Source: Longimicrobiales bacterium (lineage in GTDB: Bacteria > Gemmatimonadota > Gemmatimonadetes > Longimicrobiales > Gaopeijiaceae). From it: a stretch of DNA of 64,000 bases. The DNA lies in NCBI GenBank assembly GCA_963422615.1, contig OY730414.1, forward strand, positions 806,001 to 870,000, given 5' to 3'. Under the pieces are notes generated by a model that did not search any database, had not been told where the DNA came from, and saw only the letters and a list, made by a program, of their open reading frames with translations. Both the position numbers and the translations under genes were made by a program. This document shows, piece by piece, positions 25,701 through 37,680 of this stretch; position 1 is the first letter of the stretch, and each line of letters opens with the position of its first letter.

Positions 25701-26434
25701 GCAGATCCGTAGCGGTTGGTCATCCCCGTGTGGACGCCGGTCTCCCGGTCATACCGGTACAGCTGATAGCGGGGAAGCCTGGCGTTGTATTGCCAGTCCC
25801 CCGGGGCCGCAGCGTACCACACGTGCTGACCATCCGGGCTGAAGGCCGCGCCGACTCTCTTGAGCGCCGGGGAACCGCCCCCAAAGGCCAGGGGCGACCC
25901 GCGTTCGGCGTGGTACATGAAGAGCTGGGCCGCGCCGCCCAGGCCCCCGGACCGACTCACCACGATGAAATCCCCGTCGGGGGTCCATTCCGGGGACAGG
26001 AACAGGTTCGAGTTGCCCCGGGATACCTGGGTGGTATCGGTCTTGTCCAGGCGCATGGTCCAGAGGTTGTCCCCTCCGCTGCGGTCGGAGATAAAGGCCA
26101 CCGACTCCCCATCGGGGCTGAAGCGGGGCTGAACGTCGTACGCCATCCCGGTGAGGAGGGGGGACGCTTGACCTCCGGTGACGGGAAGGGTGTAAAGGTC
26201 TCCCAGAAGGTCGAAGACGAGGGTCTGCCCGTCGGGGCTGATGTCCAGGGAGATCCACGTGCCCTCGGTGGCGGTGAACTCCGCCGTGCGAGCGCTGTTC
26301 AGCGGCAAGGGGTTCGGTCGCGACCGCCCGCCGCCCTGCTGGGGCGACGCGGCTTCTGGCACAACGGTGACGGTCAGCGCAAGGGCCAGGAGGGTCCGGG
26401 CGGCGGGTCCGAACGCCCTTCCGCGGGGCCTCAT
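22703..26434 (-). CDS. secreted amidohydrolase family protein with N-terminal TolB/PD40 beta-propellers (paralog 2)
   Basis: PD40 repeats (SPDG), PGFVDTHYH metal motif, GVTTTRDP, GSIEEGKFADIVIL..NP; ATG 26434 overlaps the upstream TGA. Confidence 0.9.
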   Translation of the reverse strand: MRPRGRAFGPAARTLLALALTVTVVPEAASPQQGGGRSRPNPLPLNSARTAEFTATEGTWISLDISPDGQTLVFDLLGDLYTLPVTGGQASPLLTGMAYDVQPRFSPDGESVAFISDRSGGDNLWTMRLDKTDTTQVSRGNSNLFLSPEWTPDGDFIVVSRSGGLGGAAQLFMYHAERGSPLAFGGGSPALKRVGAAFSPDGQHVWYAAAPGDWQYNARLPRYQLYRYDRETGVHTGMTNRYGSAFRPAISPDGRWLVYGTRYNADTGLRKRDLETGDEAWLAYPVQRDEQESRAPLDLLPGYAFMPDGSAIVVSYGGKIWNVPMDGGDATEIEFEVPVELSVGPEVKFAYSIDTTAMVTASQIRNPAAAPGGGQIVFTAFDRLWTKNLPDGEARRLTDADVGEFHPQWSPDGRWIAYTTWDDANGGHIMKAPAEGGPPTQLTTTAALYYNVAWSPDGERIVASRGAARELKEASGIFFGPIGGEFVWVPSEGAGPAEAEVISPTGFRDVAHFASDDPGRIYAYSPIEGLVSFRWDGTDVKRHLVVRGRQGVPGIGSPHPEEWEYLPRRVFPWRKAPDPTDPDPAAEPGGPQPAGLVMLSPEGDRAFAQFGRDVFVVELAEVGETPPSIVLANLAASPVPVRKVTDVGGEFPSWAPDGSALHWAMGNVLFTYDLDHVEAEEAAEEETAHGRALLRVRAMAVSDTLKEKRAEADSLKKADEEVPDSLDAEIVRLAADSVQVVADSLMARADSIRRAAEEFAAKANAVRDGDKEVLADSTEAYEAEERKIEVMLPRDIPRGTVALQGGRIITMASVPGDTTGAPHIIEGGVVVVKDNKIVAVGPADSVEVPDSAQVIDVTGNTLVPGFVDTHYHAQWLVPEIHPEEVWQYLTTLSYGVTTTRDPQTAFTDILSYTDRVRTGGMTGPRIYSTGPGVFVSENIRDADHAKTILRRYSEYFDTKTLKMYMTGNRQQRQWVIQAARSLELMPTTEGGLDFKIDMTHAIDGYPGIEHNLPIAPIYSDVVELFKESQTTNTPTLLVSYGGPFGENYFYTTENVHDDAKLNMFVPGDNIDTRVRRRGPGAGGSPGQAGWFLKEEYVFPRHGAFVKKMLEDGARMAVGSHGQIQGIGYHWELWAMAAGGAANHDILRAATLLGAEAIGFGAQLGSIEEGKFADIVILNSNPMEDLRNTVDIRYVMKDGRLYDGMTLGEVYPEPRPLERQRSQEADASSAAAGLRPAGTGGALR

Positions 26435-29400
26435 CGTCCGTCTCCCGAAATGCCGGCCCGGACATCGGGCGCCGCGTGCCTCCACGGCTCGTCCGGCGCG
26501 GGTCGCATTCTCGGCCACAACTCGTCAAGCGTGTTCCCGTCGTAGAGCCTTCCGTTCATCATCACCTGGCTGACCGTGTTCGTGTTGCGGATGTCGTCCA
26601 AAGGATTGGCGTCCAGAATGACCAAGTCGGCGAGCTTCCCGGCCTCGATCGAACCCAGGTCGCGGCCAAGCCCGATCGCCCGCGCACCCATGATCGTCGC
26701 AGCCCGCAGGGCGTCGTGCTCCCTCATGCCCCCGCTCTGCAACGCCCAGAGCTCCCAGTGATAGCCCAGTCCCTGAAGCTGCCCGTGACTGCCGACGCCG
26801 GTCTTCCCGCCGTCCGCTACCAGCTGGGCAAGCCACCCGGAGTGCTTCCGGAAGGCATATTCCTCGTCCATAAACCACCCTCCGGGGCCCGGGCCCGTGG
26901 TTTGAAGGCGCCGGGCCTTGAAGTCGAGTTCCCGTTTCGGGGTAAAGTGGGTGAGCTTCTGGTCACCGAAGATGTCTTCGTGAGTGTAGAAGTAGTTTTC
27001 TGCCCAGGGCCCGCCGTACGAAACCAGCAGGGTTGGCGAATTCACCGTTCCCGAAGCAGCGAAAAGCTCCACAACATCCTGGTAGGCCGGAACGATGGGC
27101 ATCGAATGTTCGATCCCCGGGTAGCCGTCCATGGCATGGGTCATGTTGAGCCGGTAATCCAGGCCCCCTTCGGTGGTAGGCATCAGCTCCAGCTCCCGGG
27201 CAGCCATGATGAGCCATTGCCGCTGCCGGCGATTGCCCGACATGTACATCTTGAAGGTCTTGGTGTCGTAGTACCGGCTGTACTTGCGCAGTACGTCAAC
27301 GGCGTGTTCGTAGCTGCGCACGAAGTCGAAGGCGAAAACACCCGGACCCGTGTGATAAATTCGGGGACCCACGATCTCTCCGGCCCGGACTCTGTCTTCG
27401 TACGAGAGTACGTCGGTGGTGGCGGTCTGTGGGTCTCGCGTGGTGGTCACGCCGTAGGCCAGGTTCGCCTGGTAGATCCAGGGCCGGGACCAGTGAAATC
27501 CCCACAGGTTCCACATGTGGGCGTGGGTGTCGACGAAGCCTGGCACGATCGTCTTGCCGGCGACGTCGATCACTTCGGCCCCTTCCGGGACGACCCCCGG
27601 GCCGGCCGATACCGTCGTGATTCGGTTGTTCGTGATCACGATGTCGGCGTTTTCGATGACCTCGTCTCCGTTCATCGTGATGGCCCGGGCCCCCCGCAGG
27701 ACCACAACCCCCTGGGGGATGTCCCGCTGGGCCGTTACCCCGATCTGTTGCTCTGACGGCACGTAAGCTGGGTCGTTTTCGGCCGCGTCCAGGTCGTAGG
27801 TGAACAGGGCGTTCCCAAGGGACCAGTGAGCCGTGCGCCCGTCCGCGCCCCAGGCCGGAAACTCGATCCCGAGCTCGTTGAGCCTGCGAACCGGAACCGC
27901 GGCGGAGTCCGGCTTGAAAACGTCGACCTCCGGCAGCGTTGCGCCAAGTCCGGGCACGGTAACGGCGTACAAGTTGTCCCCGACCTGGGCGAGGGCCAAG
28001 TCACCCCGGGGGGCCATCATGACGAAGCCGGCGGACTGCCTGGGCACCAGCTCCCGGGGCTGGTCGTCGTCGAACTCCTGGGGCAACACAAGGTCGGAGG
28101 TCTCGGAGAGCCTGTACCCGTCAGGAACCCCACCTGCGGAAAAATCGATCCGGGCCGTGACTCTGAGATGAGACTTCACGTCAGTGTCATCCCAGCGGGC
28201 CGAGGTGAGCGCCAGGGTTCGCGGCGGCGCGCTCGGCGATCCCGGCACAGGGTCGGCCCGAGCGAAGCCGTAGTAGTAGATGCGGTCGGGGTCCGCCGTG
28301 AAGTGGGGCATCCTTCGTCCGCCGGTGGGACCGATGGTTGTGGCGTCACCCCCGTCGGCAGGAATCCAGACGAATTCGGAGTCGAGGCCGAAGCCGATGA
28401 ACGGGTCGATGGCCTCCTGGACATTCCGGCGGGAGGATCGAATCGACACGATCCGGCGGCCGTCCGGGGACCACGCGATCTGCTGATAATACGCCGGGGT
28501 CGTGGTCAGGGTGGACGTGGACCCGCCGTCGGCCTCCACGCGCCGAATGTGTCCCTCCCCCGAGTCGTCGTCCCACGTCACGTAGGCCACGTAACGCCCG
28601 TCGGGCGACCAGGCCGGGTGGTATTCCCCGACTGGGTCGTCGGTGAGCCGGCGCGGCGTGCCGTCCGGTAGGTCGGCGATGTAGAGGCGGTCAAGCGCCG
28701 TGAAGGCGATCCGCCCGCCGTCCGGCGAAGGGCGGGCATCCCGAATCTGCTTGACCGTAAAGGTCGGCGTGTCTTGAATCGGGTACTCGAATTCCACTTC
28801 CGGGCCGATCGCCACCTCGGCTTGGGCGGTGAACGGAATCTCGGCGGGGTCGGTGCCGTCAACGGGGACCCGCCAAATCCGACCGCCATAGGATAGAACC
28901 AGGGCGTCGGACCCGGGCGTGAAGGTATAGCCCGGCAAGACATCCATGTTTGCCGTCGATTCCTGGTCGTCGCGCTGCACCGGGTACGCGAGCCATCGCT
29001 CCTCTCCGGAGGCCAGTTCCCGAAGGCGAATGCCGGTTTCGGCGTCGTCTCTGCTCCCGTACGCGAGCCACTGTCCGTCGGGGGAGACGGCGGGGCGGAA
29101 GGCGGACCCGTAGCGGTTGGTCATCGGGGTCCGCGTCCCCGTGCGGCGGTCGTAGACCCAGAGTTGGTACTGGGGCAGGATCGCGTTGTAGCTCCACATG
29201 CCCATTCGCTGGGCGTACCACACGTAGCGCCCTTCGCTGTCCACAGCCGGCCCCATCATTCGCCCCGAGCCACCCACCATCTCCAGGCCGGTGCCGCCGT
29301 CGACATGGTAGAGCCACAGCTTCTCCAAGCCCCGGCGGGGGGCCGCCCGGGACACGACGATGTACTTTCCGTCCGGCATCCAATCGGGGGACAGGAAACG

Positions 29401-29796
29401 GCTTCCGATGCCCTTGCTCAGCTGCCGGGGTTCACCGCCAGTGGCAGGCATCAGCCACACGTTGTTGTCGCCGCTGCGGTCGGAGACGAAGACGATTCGC
29501 TCCCCGTCGGGGCTGAAGCGCGGCTGCATGTCGTGCGCCAATCCGCTGGTAAGACGGTTCGCTTCACCCCCTTCGGCTGGTATCGTGTAGAGGTCACCCA
29601 GGAGGTCGAAGACGATCGTGCTTCCGTCAGGGCTCATGTCCAGGGAGATCCAGGTGCCTTCGCTGGTCGTGAAACGGGCCCAGCGGGCAGCTTCCAGAGG
29701 AAGCCCCCGGTCTGGGTCCGCCTCCTGGGCTTGCGTGGAGAGCGGTGGAAGCAGAAAGAGGGCAGCCGTGATGAGGCCGCGGTCAAACAGACGCAT
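26431..29796 (-). CDS. secreted amidohydrolase family protein with N-terminal TolB/PD40 beta-propellers (paralog 1)
   Basis: Signal peptide, many SPDG repeats, PGFVDTHAH, GVTTTRDP, GSIEAGKLADLVILDANP. Confidence 0.9.
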   Translation of the reverse strand: MRLFDRGLITAALFLLPPLSTQAQEADPDRGLPLEAARWARFTTSEGTWISLDMSPDGSTIVFDLLGDLYTIPAEGGEANRLTSGLAHDMQPRFSPDGERIVFVSDRSGDNNVWLMPATGGEPRQLSKGIGSRFLSPDWMPDGKYIVVSRAAPRRGLEKLWLYHVDGGTGLEMVGGSGRMMGPAVDSEGRYVWYAQRMGMWSYNAILPQYQLWVYDRRTGTRTPMTNRYGSAFRPAVSPDGQWLAYGSRDDAETGIRLRELASGEERWLAYPVQRDDQESTANMDVLPGYTFTPGSDALVLSYGGRIWRVPVDGTDPAEIPFTAQAEVAIGPEVEFEYPIQDTPTFTVKQIRDARPSPDGGRIAFTALDRLYIADLPDGTPRRLTDDPVGEYHPAWSPDGRYVAYVTWDDDSGEGHIRRVEADGGSTSTLTTTPAYYQQIAWSPDGRRIVSIRSSRRNVQEAIDPFIGFGLDSEFVWIPADGGDATTIGPTGGRRMPHFTADPDRIYYYGFARADPVPGSPSAPPRTLALTSARWDDTDVKSHLRVTARIDFSAGGVPDGYRLSETSDLVLPQEFDDDQPRELVPRQSAGFVMMAPRGDLALAQVGDNLYAVTVPGLGATLPEVDVFKPDSAAVPVRRLNELGIEFPAWGADGRTAHWSLGNALFTYDLDAAENDPAYVPSEQQIGVTAQRDIPQGVVVLRGARAITMNGDEVIENADIVITNNRITTVSAGPGVVPEGAEVIDVAGKTIVPGFVDTHAHMWNLWGFHWSRPWIYQANLAYGVTTTRDPQTATTDVLSYEDRVRAGEIVGPRIYHTGPGVFAFDFVRSYEHAVDVLRKYSRYYDTKTFKMYMSGNRRQRQWLIMAARELELMPTTEGGLDYRLNMTHAMDGYPGIEHSMPIVPAYQDVVELFAASGTVNSPTLLVSYGGPWAENYFYTHEDIFGDQKLTHFTPKRELDFKARRLQTTGPGPGGWFMDEEYAFRKHSGWLAQLVADGGKTGVGSHGQLQGLGYHWELWALQSGGMREHDALRAATIMGARAIGLGRDLGSIEAGKLADLVILDANPLDDIRNTNTVSQVMMNGRLYDGNTLDELWPRMRPAPDEPWRHAAPDVRAGISGDGR

Positions 29797-29944
29797 GCGC
29801 CGACTCCGTGTGCGACGGTGAGTTGTGTTGCCGGTACCCGGGACGGATCGAAGCTCCCGGGGGCCACTGCGTAAATATGTACGAAGGAATACGTACGAGG
29901 GAAATCATATCATAGTGTCACGGATTGCCGGGGGCCACCAAGCG

Positions 29945-30224
29945 ATGTCACTGCCGCTTGGCGGAACGCCCCCCGGATCATCGAGCAACCCGGAGTTCCA
30001 GAACGCCAAGTCCCGGATCGGCCGAGGCCATTTCTACCTGGATCCGCCGCTGCGGCTCACCCGCAAGTTTTTGCGGCAACGACCTTGGGTATCGGCGACT
30101 GCCCGGCCAGCTGCTGCCGTTGAAAAAACTCGAACGCGAGATGTCTTGCGGATTGCCCTACGAGCGTGATCTCCTGAACGTCATCCGGCAGGCCGGGGGG
30201 TGCCGGCGGTTCAGCTCGTCCTGA
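29945..30224 (+). pseudogene. gene remnant of unknown identity
   Basis: Two offset frames with gene-like, GC3-rich codons (SNPEFQNAKSRIGRGHFYLDPPLRLTRKF / NDLGYRRLPGQLLPLKKLERE...ERDLLNVIRQAG); no intact gene. Confidence 0.3.
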
Positions 30225-30254
30225 TTGGGATCGTTCCGTGATCGGATTCGCCGC

Positions 30255-30921
30255 ATTGGTGCCCGCCCGGACCGCCGTGCCGCGAGTGTTGCGTCCCCGG
30301 GCGACCCATGAGTGCTGTCCGTTGTTCGAGACCGGGAGGGACAGGGGAGAGTTGTGGTCGGAGCGGCTAGCGTATAACGTGGCACGCCGGATCGGTTGGC
30401 GTCTTCCAACGAAAAGGCCCGAATGCTTTTACTCGCTGCGAGCTGTCTGGGGCCGAGGCTGTGAACACCCGGGAGAATGAACCGAGAACCTGCGAACAAG
30501 GCACCCGATGACCTCCTCCAAGTCCCTCCGCTGGCTCCTGACCGTCCTCGCCGCCTTGGCCTGCGAGGACACCCCTACCAAACTGCCGGTTTCGGCCGAA
30601 GACCGGGTTGTGCTGGAGGTGCTGTACGCGGCCACGGCCGGGCGGAACTGGTTGAGGAGCGCGAACTGGCTGACGGATGCGCCCCTATACGAATGGTACG
30701 GGGTGGATACCGACGACGCCGGGCGAGTGACGCGCCTGAACCTTGTCTCCAACCGTCTTACCGGGCCGATTCCGGCGACCTTTCTGCAACTTACCGAGCT
30801 CACCCATTTGCTCATCCAAAGAAACGATGGCCTGTGCGTCCCCGACACACCTGCCTTCCAGGCGTGGCTGAACGCCCTGGCGTACCATGATACCACGATG
30901 TGCCCCAAACTACTGTCCACT
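30255..30921 (+). repeat. copy 1 of the duplicated LRR-lipoprotein unit (~250-bp upstream region, signal, N-cap, C-cap)
   Basis: Near-identical to 31321-33037 apart from the internal repeats; both start ATTGGTGC and end ACTGTCCACT. Confidence 0.95.
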
Positions 30922-30981
30922 TCGACCGGAGGAAATGTGTTTCGCCTACACCCCGCAAAACGGCGTATCTCTATAGTATAG
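30508..30981 (+). CDS. short LRR lipoprotein (N-cap joined directly to the terminal repeat and C-cap)
   Basis: Lipobox LAALAC; DR..L..LY.AT.G.NW...NWL...P...W.GV N-cap; a single LTGPIP; LCVP..AF..WL C-cap. Confidence 0.75.
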   Translation: MTSSKSLRWLLTVLAALACEDTPTKLPVSAEDRVVLEVLYAATAGRNWLRSANWLTDAPLYEWYGVDTDDAGRVTRLNLVSNRLTGPIPATFLQLTELTHLLIQRNDGLCVPDTPAFQAWLNALAYHDTTMCPKLLSTSTGGNVFRLHPAKRRISIV

Positions 30982-31320
30982 CAGTGTTTCGGGGCCATGG
31001 GGGGGATCTGGAAGGCACAAGAGGGAGCCTACGCTCCTACGCTCCTAAAGGGAACGTACGGGGGGCTTCCCTGGAGGTCAGCCCCCGAAGTTCCTAAAGA
31101 CAACCCCTCCCGCCAAAAGTGGCAGCCCGGAGGGATTACCGGGGCTTGCCGGGTGGTAGTACCTTGCGAGGGTGCGGCAGGGCGGCGAAGCGGGCCGGGT
31201 GGCTGGCCGGGAGCTCGCGATGCGAGGACGATGACGAAGAGGTCGGGTGCGGATGCGGGTGCTTCATGTTTGTTTTGTTCTTGTGGTTTGGGTGCTCTTA
31301 AGCGGGTAAGGGGGTTGTGG

Positions 31321-33037
31321 ATTGGTGCGCGCCCGGACCGCCGTGCCGCGAGTGTTGCGTCCCCGGGCGACCCATGAGTGCTGTCCGTTGTTCGAGACCG
31401 GGAGGGACAGGGGAGAGTTGCGGTCGGAGCGGCTAGCGTGTAACGTGGCACGCCGGATCGGTTGGCGTCTTCCAACGAAATGCCACGAAAGGCCGAATGC
31501 TTTTACTCGCTGCGAGCTGTCTGGGGCCGAGGCTGTGAACACCCGGGAGAATGAACCGAGAACCTGCGAACCTACAAGGCACCCGATGACCTTCCCCAAG
31601 TCCCTCCGCTGGCTCCTGACCGTCCTCGCCGCCTTGGCCTGCGAGGACACCCCTACCGACGAGGACACCCCTACCGAACTGCCGGTTTCGGCCGAAGACC
31701 GGGTTGTGCTGGAGGTGCTGTACGCGGCCACGGACGGGCCGAACTGGTTGAGGAGCGTGAACTGGCTGACGGATGCGCCCCTACACGATTGGTACGGGGT
31801 GGATACCGACGACGCCGGGCGAGTGACGCGCCTGCACCTCGTTGGAAACTATCTTACCGGGCCGATTCCGGCGGAACTCGGCGACCTCGCCAACCTGGCA
31901 TACTTGCACCTCTACTCCAACGATCTTACCGGGCCGATTCCGGCGGAACTCGGCGACCTCGCCAACCTGGAATACTTGTACCTCGGCTCCAACGATCTTA
32001 CCGGGCCGATTCCGGCGGAACTCGGCGACCTCGCCAACCTGGAATACCTGAACCTCAGCTACAACGATCTCACCGGGCCGATTCCGGCGGAACTCGGCGA
32101 CCTCGCCAACCTGGAATACCTGAACCTCAGCAACAACGATCTCACCGGGCCGATTCCGGCGGAACTCGGCGACCTCGCCAACCTGGAATGGCTGAACCTC
32201 GGCTCCAGCCGTCTTACCGGGCCGATTCCGGCGGAACTCGGCGACCTCGCCAACCTGAAAACCCTGGGCCTCGGCGCCACCGATCTTACCGGGCCGATTC
32301 CGGCGGAACTCGGCGACCTCGCCAACCTGGAATACCTGGACCTCGGCTACAGCCGTCTTACCGGGCCGATTCCGGCGGAACTCGGCGACCTCGCCAACCT
32401 GGAAGGGCTATACCTCGGCGGCAACGGTCTTACCGGGCCGATCGGTCTTACCGGGCCGATTCCGGCGGAACTCGGCGACCTCGCCAACCTGGAATCCCTG
32501 GGCCTCGGCGGCAACGGTCTTACCGGGCCGATTCCGGCGGAACTCGGCGACCTCGCCAACCTGGAATCCCTGGACCTCGGCTACAACTATCTTACCGGGC
32601 CGATTCCGGCGGAACTCGGCGACCTCGCCAACCTGAAATACTTGCACCTCGGCGGCAACGATCTCACCGGGATTCCGGCGGAACTCGGCGACCTCGCCAA
32701 CCTGAAATACTTGCACCTCGGCGGCAACGATCTCACCGGGATTCCGGCGGAACTCGGCGACCTCGCCAACCTGGATTACCTGAACCTCGAGGACAACGGT
32801 CTTACCGGGCCGATTCCGGCGGAACTCGGCAACCTCGCCAACCTGAGAGTCCTGCGGATCGAGGACAACCATCTTACCGGGCCGATTCCGGAGACCTTTC
32901 TGCAACTTACCACGCTCGAGGTTTTGTACATCCAAGGAAACGATGGCCTGTGCGTCCCCGACACACCTGCCTTCCAGGCGTGGCTGAACGCCATTGCGTT
33001 CCATAAAACCACGATGTGCCCCAAAGTACTGTCCACT
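31321..33037 (+). repeat. copy 2 of the duplicated LRR-lipoprotein unit
   Basis: Same boundaries as copy 1, with 14 internal LRR repeats inserted. Confidence 0.95.
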
Positions 33038-33145
33038 CAGCCCCGCGCTGCTCTGCGAAGTGCGACGGTCAGGGCTTGGACGCGGCCCCCCCCCTGTCGT
33101 CTCGCACGTGAGGGTTTTCCGCCACCGTTTTGTGGACCACTTTAG
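31586..33145 (+). CDS. leucine-rich repeat lipoprotein (24-aa plant-receptor-like LRR, 16 beta-strand units)
   Basis: ATG 31586; lipobox LAALAC; repeats xxLxLxxNxLTGPIPAELGDLANL; Cys-containing C-cap. Confidence 0.95.
   Translation: MTFPKSLRWLLTVLAALACEDTPTDEDTPTELPVSAEDRVVLEVLYAATDGPNWLRSVNWLTDAPLHDWYGVDTDDAGRVTRLHLVGNYLTGPIPAELGDLANLAYLHLYSNDLTGPIPAELGDLANLEYLYLGSNDLTGPIPAELGDLANLEYLNLSYNDLTGPIPAELGDLANLEYLNLSNNDLTGPIPAELGDLANLEWLNLGSSRLTGPIPAELGDLANLKTLGLGATDLTGPIPAELGDLANLEYLDLGYSRLTGPIPAELGDLANLEGLYLGGNGLTGPIGLTGPIPAELGDLANLESLGLGGNGLTGPIPAELGDLANLESLDLGYNYLTGPIPAELGDLANLKYLHLGGNDLTGIPAELGDLANLKYLHLGGNDLTGIPAELGDLANLDYLNLEDNGLTGPIPAELGNLANLRVLRIEDNHLTGPIPETFLQLTTLEVLYIQGNDGLCVPDTPAFQAWLNAIAFHKTTMCPKVLSTQPRAALRSATVRAWTRPPPCRLAREGFPPPFCGPL
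31856..32845 (+). repeat. intragenic ~72-bp tandem array: 14 scaffolds (42 bp) alternating with 30-bp variable windows
   Basis: ACCGGGCCGATTCCGGCGGAACTCGGCGACCTCGCCAACCTG: 11 exact copies, 2 lacking one CCG codon, 1 with GAC>AAC. Confidence 0.97.
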
Positions 33146-33224
33146 GAGGCCGGAGGCCGCTTCCTGCCCTCCAAGCAGCGACTTGATCCGCGCGGCGATC
33201 TCATCCGAGATGGCCCTGATGTCG

Positions 33225-34337
33225 TCAATCCTCACAGGGGAATGCCGTGTCATCATAGTCGAGTACCGGCGGGCAAGAGATAATCCTGCCGTTGCGGTTG
33301 GCCACGCCGGCAATGATGCTCCTGTCAATGTCGTCCCTGGGCTTGTTGGCGCCAGCCCCGGCAAGCGTGGCGCTTTCGGTCCACTCGTCGTAATCCGTCC
33401 TCCAGATCTCCCATAGCGGCTCGCACGGCGACGAGTCCCGCTCGGGCCGCAAGGGCGGGGAGCCCGAGTTGGGGTCGCAGTCACCGAATGCCCAGTCGGG
33501 CACGTTGCCGCAACAGAACAGCTGTGAGCCTACCGCGAGGTTATCGATGAAAACGGGCTTTGCGGAAGTATCACGGCCGGGCACGTAGTGGTTCCGCATG
33601 ATCTGGGCTTTGGTCGGGGATCCATGAGCGTTTGAGTTTTGGATCTCAATCGCCTTTCTCCCCGGGTTAAAGATGACGTTTCCGATCACCTCGACCTTCG
33701 TTCTGCCGTCGATGCGCGGGTTGCGTTTGTCGTTGGAAGCGAAAACGTTCCGAAGCACGCTCACGCCTTTTGCTCCGGGCCCGATGAGCAAGCCCATTGA
33801 ATGCGGCCCGTAGCGGTGTTCGGCCTCGTGGAGGCCTTGCGCGATTAGGCAATTCGAAATCGTCACGTTCTCGATGGCGTACGTCGTGTTTTCGTTCCAG
33901 AGCTGGATGTTTTCGTCCGTGGCCCATGTCGCCGAGCATTGGTCGATGACGACGTTTCGGATGCCGGATTTGGCCTTGCAGGTAAGGTAAATGGCGATCC
34001 CGTCCCGGGTGTCCGGCGATCCCCCCGTGCGACCGGGCCTGGTGCGCATATGCCGCACGATTACTTCGCTTGCCCGGATCGAGATGCCCCTGCCTACGAG
34101 AGTGATTCCGGGCGCGGGAGCGGTCTCGCCGTCAAGAGTGATGTACGGGCTTTCGATGACGAGATCGCTCTCCAGCCTAATGACCCCGCCGACGCTGAAC
34201 TCGATCTTCCTGCGTCCCGTGCTGGCGCACGCTTCGCGAAGTGAGCCCGGCCCGCTGTCGCTAAGGCAGGTGACCTTGACGGCCTTGCCGTCTTTGCCAC
34301 CAACTGTATTTGCGCCGAAGCCTTCGTATGAAGTCAT
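33225..34337 (-). CDS. pectate lyase-like (PL1-type) right-handed beta-helix protein, no signal peptide
   Basis: EGFGA.T.GG..G...V..L.DSGPGSLR.A, ITLDGETAP.PGI, VIDQCS..WATDE, RNP; RBS AAGGAG. Confidence 0.88.
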   Translation of the reverse strand: MTSYEGFGANTVGGKDGKAVKVTCLSDSGPGSLREACASTGRRKIEFSVGGVIRLESDLVIESPYITLDGETAPAPGITLVGRGISIRASEVIVRHMRTRPGRTGGSPDTRDGIAIYLTCKAKSGIRNVVIDQCSATWATDENIQLWNENTTYAIENVTISNCLIAQGLHEAEHRYGPHSMGLLIGPGAKGVSVLRNVFASNDKRNPRIDGRTKVEVIGNVIFNPGRKAIEIQNSNAHGSPTKAQIMRNHYVPGRDTSAKPVFIDNLAVGSQLFCCGNVPDWAFGDCDPNSGSPPLRPERDSSPCEPLWEIWRTDYDEWTESATLAGAGANKPRDDIDRSIIAGVANRNGRIISCPPVLDYDDTAFPCED

Positions 34338-34753: not shown

Positions 34754-35668
34754 ATGACTTCCCCTGTACCCAGGAACATCGCACTGATTTCCGTGTCCAT
34801 CGATCTGGGCGCCGGCCGCCGAGGCGTCGATATGGGTCCCTCGGCGCTGCGGATTGCGGGGATCACCGAACAGTTGGAATCCATCGGACACCGGGTGATC
34901 GAGACCGGCACGGTCACGGCGGGTGGACTCGAGACCGTCGCCGCGGGCGAAAGCGGGCTCCGCTTCCTGGACGAGATTGCCGACGTGGCCCAGCGCACCC
35001 GGACACTGGTCAAAGGTAGCCTTGAACGGGGCTATACGCCCCTTATCCTGGGCGGGGACCACTCTCTCTCCATCGGTTCGGTCGCGGCGGTGGCAGATCA
35101 CTACCGGAAGGACGAAGAGCGGATCGGGGTCATCTGGGTCGATGCCCACAGCGACATGAACCGGCCCCACACCACCCCGAGCGGCAACATCCACGGGATG
35201 CCCCTCGCGATCCTTCTAGGCTACGGAGAAGAACGGTTGATGGGGCCATTGCCGAGCGTCCGCCCGGAAAATGTGAGCGTTCTGGGTGCGCGCGAAGTGG
35301 ATCCGGGGGAGAAGAGGCTGATCGCCGAGCTGGGGGTACGGGTCTTCACCATGTCGGAAATCGATGAACGGGGTGTGAGTCCGTGCATCGACGAGGCCCT
35401 CAAGCGCGCCAACGCCGGGACCCGGGGCTTCCACCTTTCCCTGGATATCGACGCCCTCGACCCCCGGCTGGCTCCCGGGGTGGGAACCCCGGTGCAGGGC
35501 GGCCTGACCTACCGCGAGGGCCACTTGGTCTGTGAAAAGGCGTCGCGCTCCGGGCGGCTGGTGAGCCTGGAGGTGGTCGAGCTCAACCCCGTCCTCGACG
35601 ACCGCAACCACACGGCCGTCCTCGCGGTTGGCTTGGTCACGTCCGCTCTCGGCAAAACAATCCTGTAG
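34754..35668 (+). CDS. rocF: arginase
   Basis: GAGRRGVDMGPSALR, LGGDHS, WVDAHSDMN, SGNIHGMP, HLSLDIDALDP..APGVGTPV.GG, VELNP. Confidence 0.95.
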   Translation: MTSPVPRNIALISVSIDLGAGRRGVDMGPSALRIAGITEQLESIGHRVIETGTVTAGGLETVAAGESGLRFLDEIADVAQRTRTLVKGSLERGYTPLILGGDHSLSIGSVAAVADHYRKDEERIGVIWVDAHSDMNRPHTTPSGNIHGMPLAILLGYGEERLMGPLPSVRPENVSVLGAREVDPGEKRLIAELGVRVFTMSEIDERGVSPCIDEALKRANAGTRGFHLSLDIDALDPRLAPGVGTPVQGGLTYREGHLVCEKASRSGRLVSLEVVELNPVLDDRNHTAVLAVGLVTSALGKTIL

Positions 35669-35688: not shown

Positions 35689-37680
35689 GTGATCTCGGTG
35701 GCCGGCCTCGAAAAGTCCTTTGGTGACCGGACCCTCTTCGCCGGCGCTTCCTTCCTGCTGAACGCCGGCGAGCGCTACGGACTGGTGGGCGCCAACGGCT
35801 CTGGGAAAACCACGCTTCTGAACATCCTTGCGGCTGACATGGAGGCAAGCGCGGGCTCCGTTTCCATACCCAGAGGGGTGCGTCTCGGGGTCCTCCGCCA
35901 GGACCGGTTCCTCTATGAGGACGAAGAAATCCTCCCCGTCGCGCTGATGGGCAACGCCGAGCTCTGGGCGGCCATGGCCGAGAAGGAGAAGATCCTGGCC
36001 CAGTCAGAGCGGCACTTCGACGCCAACCGTTTCTCCGAGCTGGAAGACGTCGTCCAGCGTCACGACGGCTACATGGCCGAAGCCCGGGCCGCGGCGATTC
36101 TGGAAGGGCTCGGGATCCCGGCGAATATTCACCGGAACCCGCTTTCCACCCTTTCGGGCGGTTTCAGGCTCCGGGTACTCCTGGCCCAGGTGTTGGCGAG
36201 TGCTCCCGATGTCCTCCTCCTGGACGAGCCCACCAACCACCTGGACATCCTTGCCATCCGGTGGCTGGAGAAGTTCCTCCGCGGCTTCTCCGGCGCCGTG
36301 GTCGTCATCAGCCACGACCACCGCTTCCTCGACAACGTGGCGACCCACATCCTGGACGTGGATTACGAGACCGTCCTCTCCTACCCCGGCAACTACAGCC
36401 GCTTCCTGGAGGCCAAGAAGGCCGAACGAGGGCGGAGGGAGAAGGAAATCGTCGCCCGCCAGAAGGAAATCGTCCACCACCAGAAGTTCGTGGACCGGTT
36501 CCGGGCCAAGGCGACCAAGGCACGACAAGCGCAGAGCAAGCTCCGCCTGATCGAGAAGAAGGCGGCCGGGCTCGACCGGCTCCCTCGCAGCTCCCGCCGC
36601 TATCCGGCTTTCCGTTTCGAGCAGAGACGCCCGAGCGGACAGGAGGTCGTCAAGGTCAGCGGGGTCGCCAAGTCCTTCGGCGACAACCACGTCCTTCAGG
36701 GGGTCGGTCTCAGGGTCAATCGGGGTGACCGGATCGCCATCATGGGACCAAACGGGATCGGGAAATCTACTCTGCTGAAGATCATGATGGGCCGCCTGGA
36801 GGCGGACGAAGGGTCGGTCGAATGGGGATACGAGACCCATCCCGGGCACTTCGCCCAGGACTACGGGGACCACTTCCGTTCCCTGGACCGGAGCGCGGAG
36901 GCGTGGATCGAGGACTTCTGCGACGGGAAGGGAAGGGGATACGCCCTGAGCAGGATGGGGATGGTGCTCTTTTCCGGAGACGACGCCGAGAAGCGTCTCG
37001 GGTCCCTCTCCGGAGGCGAGGCCGCACGTTTGGTCTTTTGCAGCCTCATGATTCGGATGCCGAATGTCCTCGTCCTGGACGAACCCACGAACCACCTGGA
37101 CCTGGAGGCCATCGAGGCCCTGGTTGAGGGCCTTCGGGGCTATGATGGCACCTTGGTCTTCGTCTCCCATGACCGCTGGTTCGTGAGCCGCTTGGCCAAC
37201 CGGATCGTGGAGATCACTCCCGGGGGGATCCGGGACTACCGGGGCAGCTACGAGGAGTACGTCCACTTCTGCGGAGACGACCACCTGGATGCGGATACCG
37301 TCGTCCTGAAGGCAAAAGTCCTGAAGGCAAAAAAGGACAAGCGCAGGCGCGCCCGTTCGGGCCCCGGGAAGGGCCAGGCGACAGTCGGGGGCCGGTCCCG
37401 GAGTGGGCGCCGGACCGGACCGAAGGGCGGTGTGGGTCGCCCGAGTCCGGAGCGCGGTCGGAAGGAAATGGAGGCACTCCTTGGGCGAATCACCAGCCGC
37501 ATTGAATCGGCGGAGGTGAGGATCTCCGAAATCGACGCCGTTTTCGCCAGCGCATCGTACTCCGACAAAGCCCGCCTGGAAGAGATACGCGCCCTCAAGC
37601 TGGAACGCTTGGAACTTGTGGAGGAAGTGGCTCGCCTGATGAGCGAATGGGAGGAAGTGGAAGCCGAACTTGCGCTCTGA
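35689..37680 (+). CDS. ABC-F family ribosome-associated ATPase
   Basis: Two NBDs (GANGSGKTT/LSGG/LLLDEPTNHLD and GPNGIGKST/LSGGE/LVLDEPTNHLD); no TM segments; C-terminal coiled coil. Confidence 0.95.
   Translation: MISVAGLEKSFGDRTLFAGASFLLNAGERYGLVGANGSGKTTLLNILAADMEASAGSVSIPRGVRLGVLRQDRFLYEDEEILPVALMGNAELWAAMAEKEKILAQSERHFDANRFSELEDVVQRHDGYMAEARAAAILEGLGIPANIHRNPLSTLSGGFRLRVLLAQVLASAPDVLLLDEPTNHLDILAIRWLEKFLRGFSGAVVVISHDHRFLDNVATHILDVDYETVLSYPGNYSRFLEAKKAERGRREKEIVARQKEIVHHQKFVDRFRAKATKARQAQSKLRLIEKKAAGLDRLPRSSRRYPAFRFEQRRPSGQEVVKVSGVAKSFGDNHVLQGVGLRVNRGDRIAIMGPNGIGKSTLLKIMMGRLEADEGSVEWGYETHPGHFAQDYGDHFRSLDRSAEAWIEDFCDGKGRGYALSRMGMVLFSGDDAEKRLGSLSGGEAARLVFCSLMIRMPNVLVLDEPTNHLDLEAIEALVEGLRGYDGTLVFVSHDRWFVSRLANRIVEITPGGIRDYRGSYEEYVHFCGDDHLDADTVVLKAKVLKAKKDKRRRARSGPGKGQATVGGRSRSGRRTGPKGGVGRPSPERGRKEMEALLGRITSRIESAEVRISEIDAVFASASYSDKARLEEIRALKLERLELVEEVARLMSEWEEVEAELAL

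Follow-up and report, generated by a model that had tools for sequence, protein, structure and literature searches.

The plant-specific class of LRRs has units of 24 residues with the consensus LxxLxLxxNxL(t/s)GxIPxxLGxLxx, whose xxLxLxx positions contact the ligand and are under positive selection in plant receptors and R proteins. The TAL effectors of Xanthomonas are built from tandem units that are near-identical in DNA save for a short patch which sets specificity, and they evolve by recombination between units. In the Mtd diversity-generating retroelement (DGR) of Bordetella phage, in vlsE of Borrelia and in the lamprey VLRs, variation falls in defined patches between invariant flanks; the VLRs vary the inner face of their LRRs.

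Repeats with high internal conservation (HIC) occur in NLR/STAND proteins of fungi and of some bacteria (WD repeats in the HNWD genes het-d, het-e and het-r of Podospora, as well as ANK and TPR repeats). Their units are near-identical, and the definition given in the sections of the article used here requires repeats to exceed 85% identity to one another over 100 amino acids or more (PMC4986451). Hypervariability is limited to a few codons per unit, which map to the binding surface, a pattern which the accessible text of the two sources explains by concerted evolution, repeat reshuffling and positive diversifying selection (PMC4986451; bioRxiv 10.1101/2020.01.06.895854). The same text states that LRRs are absent from the NLRs of fungi and prokaryotes (PMC4986451; bioRxiv 10.1101/2020.01.06.895854). 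Sponge-associated bacteria possess eukaryotic-like LRR, ANK and TPR proteins, and the LRR proteins have been postulated to mediate host-microbe interaction; within the accessible part of this source LRR genes appear as counts, and DNA-identical scaffolds with hypervariable strands are not described (PMC6306507).

The locus described here lies in a stretch of 64,000 nucleotides, to which all coordinates refer; its features are listed in Table 1. Tandem Repeats Finder (TRF) reported a 72-bp period with 14.3 copies between 31847 and 32891, and cutting at the anchor CTCGCCAACCTG delimited 14 constant segments (scaffolds), which alternate with variable segments of 30 bp (windows).

Table 1. Features of the LRR locus and of the adjacent paralog
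Feature	Position	Strand	Basis
LRR lipoprotein-like CDS, 519 aa	31586..33145	+	translation, Pfam, AF2
Putative signal peptide ending LAALAC; putative lipidated Cys is residue 19	31586..31642	+	translation
Exact 18-bp tandem duplication (DEDTPT twice), linker after Cys	31642..31677	+	TRF, 2.0 copies, 100%
N-terminal cap (N-cap), residues 37-80, ...WYGVDTDDAGRV	31694..31825	+	phmmer, alignments
Window w0 (TRLHLVGNYL), first LRR strand	31826..31855	+	translation, AF2
Array: 14 scaffolds (TGPIPAELGDLANL) alternating with 13 windows (xxLxLxxNxL)	31856..32845	+	TRF, anchor cutting
Exact 18-bp tandem duplication within unit 8 (GLTGPI insert), just before one scaffold	32425..32460	+	TRF
Two identical 69-bp units (KYLHLGGNDLTGIPAELGDLANL), both without CCG	32636..32773	+	pairwise difference 0
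Window w14, last	32846..32875	+	translation, AF2
Last window w14 (RVLRIEDNHL) and C-cap (TGPIPETFLQL...GNDGLCVPDTPAFQAWLNAIAFHKTTMCPK)	32846..33025	+	translation
Tandem paralog, 157 aa, single LRR	30508..30981	+	ORF list, alignment, blastn
Upstream region, read as non-coding	31314..31585	+	duplicates paralog upstream 30255-30507

Eleven of the 14 scaffolds were the exact 42-mer. The scaffold at 32804-32845 differed by a single non-synonymous G to A change (GAC to AAC, Asp to Asn), and two, in the units starting at 32636 and 32705, lacked CCG and were 39 bp long. A preliminary description of this DNA had reported 14 scaffolds of 42 bp free of synonymous change; the number of synonymous changes was indeed zero, but the uniform length does not hold. 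The array lies where that description had placed it, but the repeat region extends by one window on each side (w0 and w14). All of the windows it had listed were found, with EYLNLSNNDL and ESLGLGGNGL in addition and KYLHLGGNDL occurring twice, and so were the sub-blocks said to recur, namely AGCCGT in the windows at 32186 and 32330 and GACCTCGGCTAC in those at 32330 and 32564. The units read xxLxLxxNxLTGPIPAELGDLANL or near variants; 12 of 15 comprised 24 amino acids, two had 23 and one had 30. The identical pair of 69-bp units marks the most recent duplication within the array. All five length changes (18, 18, 3, 3 and 69 bp) were multiples of three and in frame.

The protein is composed of a putative signal peptide with a candidate lipobox, an acidic Thr/Pro linker, an N-cap, 15 LRRs, a Cys-containing C-cap and a tail modelled with low confidence. 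Its Pfam matches were to LRR families only (LRR_1, E = 3e-54, 169.6 bits against a cut-off of 20.6; LRR_8, E = 4e-51, 171.1 bits against 27; LRR_14, 124.3 bits against 40), with no NACHT/NB-ARC or effector domain. The structure prediction which the preliminary description had called for was run as a single-sequence AF2 model (mean pLDDT 75) and gave a solenoid with one strand per window. By DSSP a beta-strand was present in 15 of 15 windows, that of w0 spanning E80-86, and a short helix (AELGD) lay within the scaffolds. Between residues 70 and 470 approximately, pLDDT averaged over blocks of ten residues was mostly 76-98, with 67-70 in three other blocks and a dip to 53 at the GLTGPI insertion, where residues 281-285 fell below 50. 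By analogy with known LRR structures, in which the strands lie on the inner (concave) face, we assign the windows to that face. Long open reading frames in other frames or on the minus strand across the array (e.g. 31789-33006 on the plus and 32408-33484 on the minus strand) were rejected as by-products of the GC-rich repeat, since both the Pfam matches and the fold belong to the LRR frame.

At the N-terminus, MTFPKSLRWLLTVLAALAC was read from the translation and is presumed to fit the loose lipobox pattern; paralogs carry LVAC and LAAC at the same place. The earlier suggestion of a lipoprotein agrees with this putative signal, and the protein is probably extracytoplasmic and lipid-anchored, lipidation and surface exposure being putative, and built as a plant-type LRR solenoid. 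The 18-bp duplication in the linker was absent from the small paralog and from the contig of sequencing run X1 that reaches scaffold 1. The N-cap is common to the small paralog and to homologues, and the C-cap is of the same type as in one related array (L045).

The top PDB sequence matches were ectodomains of plant LRR receptor-kinases (GSO1, 6s6q, 1e-178; FLS2, 4mn8, 1e-132; with PEPR1 and BRI1, E = 1e-178 to 1e-79). Unit length and consensus are alike, and the N-cap aligns with that of the plant proteins, the phmmer alignments beginning at query residue 37 (7odk) or at 61-68. By its Pfam matches, its unit consensus and the one predicted strand per unit, the array is a member of the plant-specific 24-residue LRR class. 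Unlike the plant receptors, however, the gene is bacterial, encodes no transmembrane or kinase part and has other cap cysteines, and while the plant arrays are old and their scaffolds diverged, the scaffolds here are identical in DNA.

The preliminary description had stressed the uniformity of the scaffolds relative to the windows; this point was upheld, and window variation was mostly non-synonymous at the x positions. The ten regular 72-nt units had 19 variable columns, of which 18 fell within the 30 window columns (hypergeometric P ~3e-8, worked by hand), and the scaffold part was 100% identical in nine, the tenth being the Asp to Asn unit. The 13 windows differed on average by 7.5 of 30 bases in pairwise comparison. 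NG86 estimates were pN 0.273 and pS 0.179 for windows, and pS 0 for scaffolds over ~12 synonymous sites each. Changes in the windows fell on the first and second codon positions of x residues, with the L, L, N and L codons kept, and Gly, Tyr, Asp, Ser and Asn made up 57 of 78 residues at x positions. The units at 32042 and 32114 were one base apart, the difference being non-synonymous. This pair, the identical pair of 69-bp units and the greater likeness of adjacent windows show successive steps in the origin and divergence of units.

In these respects the gene resembles, by analogy, the HIC repeats of fungal NLRs: solenoid units are near-identical and the hypervariable codons lie on the strand-bearing face. 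There are several differences. Mean identity between the regular units was 79% for amino acids, below the 85% cut-off of the HIC definition (PMC4986451), and 89.6% for DNA. HIC repeats are WD, ANK or TPR repeats in cytoplasmic receptors with a NOD domain, whereas the repeats described here are LRRs in a secreted, lipoprotein-like protein without NACHT/NB-ARC. In this genome scaffold and windows are unique to the locus, which rules out exchange with other members of the family, and RIP does not apply. TAL effectors, for their part, consist of 34-residue helical DNA-binding repeats with two variable residues and are type III secreted; they have no relation in sequence or fold to the LRR array.

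The tandem paralog possesses the same putative signal peptide, N-cap and C-cap as the large gene, and its layout is that of the first window joined straight to the last scaffold and C-cap. The upstream regions of the two genes were 93.6% identical over 265 nt and the N-caps 89% (blastn, indels counted), with few substitutions, roughly 3-4% by eye on the alignment; the C-cap DNA was 89.5% identical. In contrast, 8 of the last 24 bases, counted by eye, differed between w0 and the window of the paralog. The segment from 31314 to 31585 is taken to be non-coding because the upstream reading frame is broken there by indels of 8 bp and 4 bp. A scan for promoters revealed no sigma-70-like site upstream of the LRR gene, and terminator-like sites amounted to one, far upstream, fewer than in shuffled sequences. 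Between 29800 and 33300 no Rfam family reached its threshold; the one match, to a miRNA, scored 22 bits where the threshold is 100 and was put down to chance. A joint that 'skips 1026' and half-depth variants at 31570-31789 and 32912-33007 had been considered as alleles and were rejected, since the paralog alignment shows them to be paralog cross-mapping.

Other strains and samples were compared through Logan contigs, which break at scaffolds, and most of the array had no contig coverage in this comparison. One case of a window differing between strains was found: in an orthologous contig from run X1 (31383-31902) 7 of 13 substitutions fell inside a 16-bp stretch of w0, where they changed H to D, V to D, G to Y and Y to N, all at x residues, while the flanks were near-identical and scaffold 1 was unchanged. 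Contigs of run X3 (32464-32565 and 32808-32966) and run X6 (32309-32404) showed 0 differences from the reference. One of the matching runs may be the source sample. Searches for exact copies of the scaffold gave 0 matches for a 42-mer in public metagenome contigs and 0 for a 36-mer in public genome contigs. No N-cap at least 90% identical was among the matches listed, the best reaching 70% (120 of 975) or, for short proteins, 67% (120 of 708), in lists ranked by bit score, where closer but shorter matches could rank lower. A DNA search of the genomes of 40 relatives found no orthologous array; seven of the 40 had LRR genes of ~67% identity.

The nearest named homologues came from MAGs of Gemmatimonadota, Longimicrobiales, Ca. 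Palauibacter, Dehalococcoidia, Caldilineaceae and Tectimicrobiota, groups which we take to be associated with sponge microbiomes. Among 62 related arrays, which are not independent and include near-duplicate loci from one MAG (e.g. L015/L016 and L013/L018), pN of windows exceeded pN of scaffolds in 62 of 62. The uniformity of the scaffolds described here stands out against the 61 other arrays as well. Scaffold DNA is private to each array; in one of them (L009) 6 of 10 scaffolds were identical, and L011 and L040 were similar. Regression over the 62 arrays gave pN_window = 0.296 + 0.198 x pS_scaffold. Window diversity is thus near 0.3 regardless of scaffold synonymous diversity, being already full while scaffolds are young, and the array studied here stands at the extreme of the range.

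We think it fairly probable that the array expanded recently and evolves in concert, while selection diversifies its binding face. The array would have grown by recent duplication of single 72-bp units, and unequal crossing-over and gene conversion between the identical 42-bp scaffolds, both of them ordinary homologous recombination, would maintain its uniformity, while strong purifying selection would hold the scaffold protein sequence. The ten codons of each beta-strand and the following turn would be kept different or driven apart by diversifying selection, and conversion tracts ending inside windows may contribute to their mosaic look. The inner face of the solenoid would bind a partner, the ligand being putative, and the process would involve neither a dedicated mutator nor a cassette donor. 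As a result the binding face would change rapidly from strain to strain and from paralog to paralog, while the scaffold stays frozen. The roles given here to recombination, as homogeniser, and to selection, as diversifier, are what we infer from the pattern of differences. Homogenisation of the scaffold and a very young array under strong positive selection are inseparable, because the strictly synonymous contrast (three purely synonymous variable columns, 7, 9 and 30, in windows and none in scaffolds; P ~0.05-0.09, estimated by hand) is too weak for use alone.

A rival reading is active reshuffling within populations, the identical scaffolds acting as built-in recombination sites; gain, loss and exchange of units would create new alleles that differ in repeat number and window order, and with them a standing repertoire of binders, a bacterial LRR parallel to the HNWD/NLR repeats of fungi. 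Stretches of 42 bp are about the length that RecA-type recombination needs, and the identity of the scaffolds, the identical pair of units, the in-frame slippage events of 18 bp and 3 bp and the X1 orthologue without the linker duplication but with a recoded w0 would all fit, as would the same regime in the arrays of other MAGs. Non-adjacent windows share sub-blocks, and homoplasy among them was high (40 of 171 site pairs incompatible; parsimony length 42 against a minimum of 28), for which convergence could also be a source. On the other hand, a PHI-like test in which positions were permuted gave no significant sign of recombination inside windows (P = 0.17), only one allele of the array was directly observed, the X3 contig over 32464-32565 and that of X6 matched the reference exactly, and close N-cap alleles were missing from the matches listed. 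Reshuffling of this kind is in our view unlikely.

We rate as rather less probable still that the array is simply a young tandem expansion whose windows then drifted, neutrally or under relaxed constraint, with neither selection for diversity nor homogenisation. Adjacent windows were the most alike (6.25 differences, compared with 8.7 for windows seven apart) and one pair of units is identical, as such drift would predict; moreover structure constrains the scaffold residues of all LRR proteins, which by itself would lower the number of changes there, and window pN was in excess in every one of the 62 arrays. Drift should, however, also strike the ~12 synonymous sites of each scaffold, and none was changed in 14 scaffolds while windows diverged by up to 25%. 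Nor would it spare the L/L/N/L codons and leave nearly all window changes non-synonymous at x positions. In two independent comparisons, with the paralog and with run X1, window divergence (8 of 24 bases; 7 within 16 bp) was about ten-fold or more above that of the flanks.

The sharp limits of the variation, confined to 30-bp windows between invariant flanks, might suggest a dedicated diversifier such as a DGR, gene conversion from silent donors in the manner of vlsE, pilS or the lamprey VLRs, or targeted hypermutation. The genome searched (2.57 Mb in one contig, 98.1% complete) makes this highly improbable. It contained 0 matches to the reverse transcriptase family RVT_1, while the same search was positive in 3 of 14 control genomes. 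Neither the scaffold (up to 8 mismatches) nor any of 14 window sequences (up to 4 mismatches) was found outside the locus, and sharing of windows between loci, a check proposed in the preliminary description, therefore gave nothing. Since these sequences occur nowhere else in the genome there are no donor or silent cassettes; the only paralog with shared flanks is the complete small gene with its one window. Reverse transcriptase, template repeat and silent cassettes, the parts on which DGR and cassette systems depend, are thus all absent. The four flanking ORFs scanned (26431-29796, 33225-34337, 34754-35668 and 35689-37680) included no recombinase, their matches being to families of enzymes or transporters, namely PD40/amidohydrolase, arginase, ABC-F and, below the cut-off, Beta_helix (21.8 bits against 25.9), and an inverted-repeat scan of 29800-33400 revealed nothing resembling an invertible switch. 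As the variable columns hold all four bases, the pattern is not adenine-specific. A dedicated diversifier is largely refuted for the genome studied.

That the uniformity is an artefact of assembly or polishing is scarcely credible: near-identical units do fill 1 kb of the locus, and short contigs cannot confirm how many copies of the identical 69-bp unit it has, but other runs reproduced 32464-32565 and 32808-32966 (X3), 32309-32404 (X6) and scaffold 1 (X1), the windows stay distinct and the frame is open over 1.5 kb.

The locus reveals no new molecular mechanism of diversification. It looks like the work of ordinary repeat homogenisation and of selection for a varied binding face, not of a dedicated diversity machine. 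The preliminary description had spoken of a system with a repertoire of binders, which the genome does not bear out, as it holds one gene of the expressed type. In a broader form, plant-type LRR arrays in surface proteins of uncultured bacteria from several phyla would be a fast-evolving recognition repertoire with private, DNA-identical, self-recombining scaffolds, a continual turnover of units and many alleles per population; we regard this as unlikely. Were it true, the arrays would parallel, in prokaryotes and outside the cell, the HIC repeats of fungal NLRs, with an outcome comparable to that of the lamprey VLRs, and would serve in the recognition of hosts, phages or competitors.

If the reading of a recently expanded, homogenised array with a selected binding face holds, the gene would be a natural version of the engineered consensus-repeat binder libraries, in which the scaffold is frozen and surface positions are randomised. 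It would also widen the regime of high internal conservation with hypervariable sites, described so far in intracellular NLRs with WD, ANK and TPR repeats, so as to include LRRs and proteins that bacteria secrete. The trend across the family suggests that a frozen scaffold with a varied face is a common evolutionary mode in uncultured, possibly host-associated bacteria, and the locus would then provide a concrete case for how the surface proteins of symbionts may track a changing partner.

The array lies in a gene that encodes a 519-aa protein in the plus frame, from an ATG at 31586 to a stop at 33145, and Tandem Repeats Finder reported a 72-bp period in 14.3 copies at 31847-32891. The only families matched in Pfam were LRR families (LRR_1, E = 3e-54; LRR_8, E = 4e-51). 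The top solved-structure matches were plant LRR receptor-kinase ectodomains (GSO1, 1e-178; FLS2, 1e-132; the repetition inflates these E-values), with Leptospira LRR proteins lower in the list. Structure prediction, which the preliminary description had recommended, bore out the LRR reading: a single-sequence AlphaFold2 model placed an LRR strand in all 15 windows and a short helix (AELGD) in every scaffold. Over residues ~70-470, 10-residue blocks mostly had a mean pLDDT of 76-98; the value fell to 53 where unit 8 has its insertion, and three further blocks reached 67-70. Other long ORFs over the array were rejected as by-products of the GC-rich repeat; those at 31789-33006 (+, 405 aa) and 32408-33484 (-, 358 aa) are off-frame, Arg/Pro/Gly-rich repeat translations by which gene callers could be misled.

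Elements of the 519-aa LRR protein in N- to C-terminal order
Element	Position	Strand	Remark
Signal peptide	N-terminal, first part	+	ends LAALAC
Acidic Thr/Pro linker	after signal peptide	+	includes exact 18-bp tandem duplication 31642-31677
N-cap	after linker	+	...WYGVDTDDAGRV
15 LRRs	between N-cap and C-cap	+	
C-cap	after LRRs	+	two Cys (GNDGLCVP...TTMCPK)
Tail	C-terminal	+	~40 residues

Cutting the array at its anchor sequence delimited 14 scaffolds without a single synonymous change, the number and the invariance that had been noticed at first sight; the supposed uniform length of 42 bp did not hold, because two of them lack CCG and give 23-residue units. The exact 42-mer is present in 11 scaffolds, and one carries a G>A change (Asp>Asn). 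Unit 8 has gained GLTGPI by an exact 18-bp duplication (32425-32460). The 13 scaffold-flanked windows, in contrast, differ on average by 7.5 of 30 bases, which confirms the alternation of invariant and variable parts, and the recurring sub-blocks cited earlier were also found in windows of the array. Among the 10 regular units 18 of 19 variable columns fall in windows, where variation affects codon positions 1 and 2 of residues 1, 2, 4, 6, 7, 8 and 9, while the Leu, Leu, Asn and Leu codons are conserved and purely synonymous variation is limited to columns 7, 9 and 30. Gly, Tyr, Asp, Ser or Asn occupy 57 of the 78 variable (x) positions of xxLxLxxNxL.

Stages of expansion and divergence are visible in the array, since units 32636 and 32705 are identical, units 32042 and 32114 are one non-synonymous base apart, adjacent windows resemble each other more than distant ones and all five length changes are in-frame. 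What is seen agrees with an array that expanded recently, is homogenised by recombination and is under diversifying selection at its strand residues. The data accommodate both a history in which scaffolds were homogenised while old windows persisted and one in which the whole array is very young and strong selection pushed its windows apart. At strictly synonymous sites the contrast between windows and scaffolds is only 3 against 0 (P about 0.05-0.09, a hand estimate), and replacements of several bases in one codon inflate the NG86 pS of windows (0.179). There is much homoplasy, with 40 of 171 site pairs incompatible and a parsimony length of 42 where 28 is the minimum, but a positional test for recombination inside windows was not significant (P = 0.17), so mosaic recombination there is only possible.

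The whole gene head, comprising upstream region, signal peptide and N-cap, is tandemly duplicated (30238-30981 and 31314-31855), with 1 and 15 LRRs respectively. The smaller gene (30508-30981, 157 aa) has signal peptide, N-cap and C-cap as in the big gene and reads as the first window fused directly to the last scaffold and C-cap. It has the look of an unexpanded ancestor or, alternatively, of the product of a recombination collapse between the first and last repeats. In blastn, with indels counted, the duplicated 250 bp upstream of it are 93.6% identical and the N-cap 89%; substitutions in both are few, roughly 3-4% as estimated by eye on the alignment. In the first window 8 of 24 bases differ, two of them synonymously.

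Parts of the stretch were present in seven public sequencing runs, of which four were compared. Contigs from 31-mer graphs break at scaffolds, as is to be expected, and no read of the raw-read run could be placed, so the comparison covers pieces of the array, most of which has no depth. An assembly artefact is argued against by the pieces 32464-32565 and 32808-32966 in run X3 and 32309-32404 in run X6, all with 0 differences from the assembly; one of the runs, however, may itself come from the source sample. Many apparent variants, as well as a joint that "skips 1026", were rejected as alleles after a letter-by-letter check against the paralog alignment, which traced them to cross-mapping of the small paralog. 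A 501-bp contig of run X1 (31383-31902) runs on through an unchanged scaffold 1 and is therefore the big gene's orthologue. Because 7 of its 13 substitutions cluster inside 16 bp of window w0 (LHLVGNYL to LDLDYNNL), this window changes far more quickly than the sequence around it between strains too, possibly by one conversion-like replacement. The orthologue is without the 18-bp linker duplication (31642-31659) and has the small paralog's letters at 31758, 31784 and 31789, a pattern that points to gene conversion between the big and the small gene or else to an old polymorphism.

No dedicated diversifying machine was found. Scaffold copies were absent elsewhere in the 2.57-Mb single-contig genome at up to 8 mismatches. 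The windows had been thought to be shuffled or mutated, with sharing between loci proposed as a check; none of the 14 window sequences searched recurs elsewhere in the genome at up to 4 mismatches, so there are no donor cassettes and no inter-locus sharing. RVT_1 had 0 matches in the genome (98.1% complete), the identical search matching 3 of 14 control genomes. A scan of four neighbouring ORFs gave a PD40/amidohydrolase protein, an arginase, an ABC-F ATPase and a beta-helix model below cut-off (21.8 against 25.9 bits), and around the locus the searches for switch-like inverted repeats, promoter-like sites and Rfam families were negative. The first of these neighbours (26431-29796, -) is a secreted-looking protein of 1121 aa that carries PD40 beta-propeller repeats and a DPPIV_N-like region, with an amidohydrolase domain at its C-terminus. 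The pattern is striking and real; its mechanism is probably ordinary.

Homologues are numerous (6606 of 7999 scored proteins at E <= 1e-3), and the MAG labels of those named include Gemmatimonadota, Longimicrobiales, Ca. Palauibacter, Dehalococcoidia, Vicinamibacterales, Rhodothermales, Caldilineaceae and Tectimicrobiota. From homologous loci and three stretches of the same genome, every run of 5 or more regular 24-residue units was cut, where a unit had to agree with 10 or more of 11 conserved positions; irregular and 23-residue units were skipped, leaving 10 of the 15 target units. The 62 arrays obtained include some near-duplicates that come from one MAG. Windows exceeded scaffolds in pN in all 62 and in pS in 45. 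The regressions (pN_window = 0.296 + 0.198 x pS_scaffold; pS_window = 0.119 + 0.858 x pS_scaffold) therefore place window diversity near its plateau already in arrays with almost identical scaffolds. With its pS_scaffold of 0 the target array stands at the far end of a continuum; the next arrays are L009 from a same-family genome, in which 6 of 10 scaffolds are identical (pS 0.039), and those in L023, L040 and L011. Each array has private scaffold DNA, the mark of either concerted evolution or independent recent expansions. The metagenome contig L045 encodes the identical scaffold protein LTGPIPAELGNLANL in different codons, with synonymous variation present.

Several relatives deserve mention. 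In L011 (2679-3690, a Dehalococcoidia-labelled MAG) the scaffold DNA is near-identical except for two varying residues, IP[A/T/M/P]ELG[S/D/G/N]L, which could make up another variable patch away from the strand face. The close relatives L011-L044 (45-59% identity) occur in MAGs labelled with at least 9 higher taxa (Dehalococcoidia, Vicinamibacterales, Longimicrobiales, Rhodothermales, Caldilineaceae, Spirochaetia, Tectimicrobiota, Thioploca and Rickettsiales), a distribution that looks habitat-linked or horizontal rather than vertical. The 841-aa protein P0121 reached 450 bits when the query was an N-cap region of 86 residues, implying several N-cap modules and hence several LRR arrays in one protein. 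Outside the window, the same genome encodes a protein of >1080 aa (L010, G000:C1:5242-8499) which, to judge by its translation, begins with a lipobox and an Ig-like region, followed by an N-cap and an LRR array whose units mostly have 23 residues (LTGIPPEIGNLxxL); a second N-cap with short LRRs then leads to a C-terminal part that bears a zinc-protease-like motif (HELGHNMNLLH). A gene resembling it is found at C1:2150498-2148501.

The array has analogies in TAL effector arrays, lamprey VLRs and DGRs; the components that define DGRs and cassette systems were looked for in this genome and were absent. The closest described regime is that of WD, ANK and TPR repeats of fungal NLRs, where "high internal conservation" is associated with concerted evolution, repeat reshuffling and positive selection at few surface codons (PMC4986451). 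It is also noted for bacterial NLR WD/TPR repeats (bioRxiv 10.1101/2020.01.06.895854), and according to both papers LRRs are absent from such NLRs. Judged against them, the target works like this regime and is not a member of the family, because its repeats are LRRs rather than WD, ANK or TPR, the protein is secreted and lipoprotein-like without a NOD domain, there is no exchange between loci in its genome, and its units share 79% amino-acid identity against a threshold of 85%. Bacterial DNA-identical LRR scaffolds with hypervariable strands were not found described in the titles and abstract openings of the open-access papers that the literature searches listed.

In function the protein is most likely a binder, lipid-anchored and extracytoplasmic, of a bacterium that may, by taxon labels, be linked to sponge symbionts. 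LRR proteins of the kind have been discussed as eukaryotic-like and mediating host interaction in sponge symbionts (PMC6306507). The array is best read as a new form of a known evolutionary regime.
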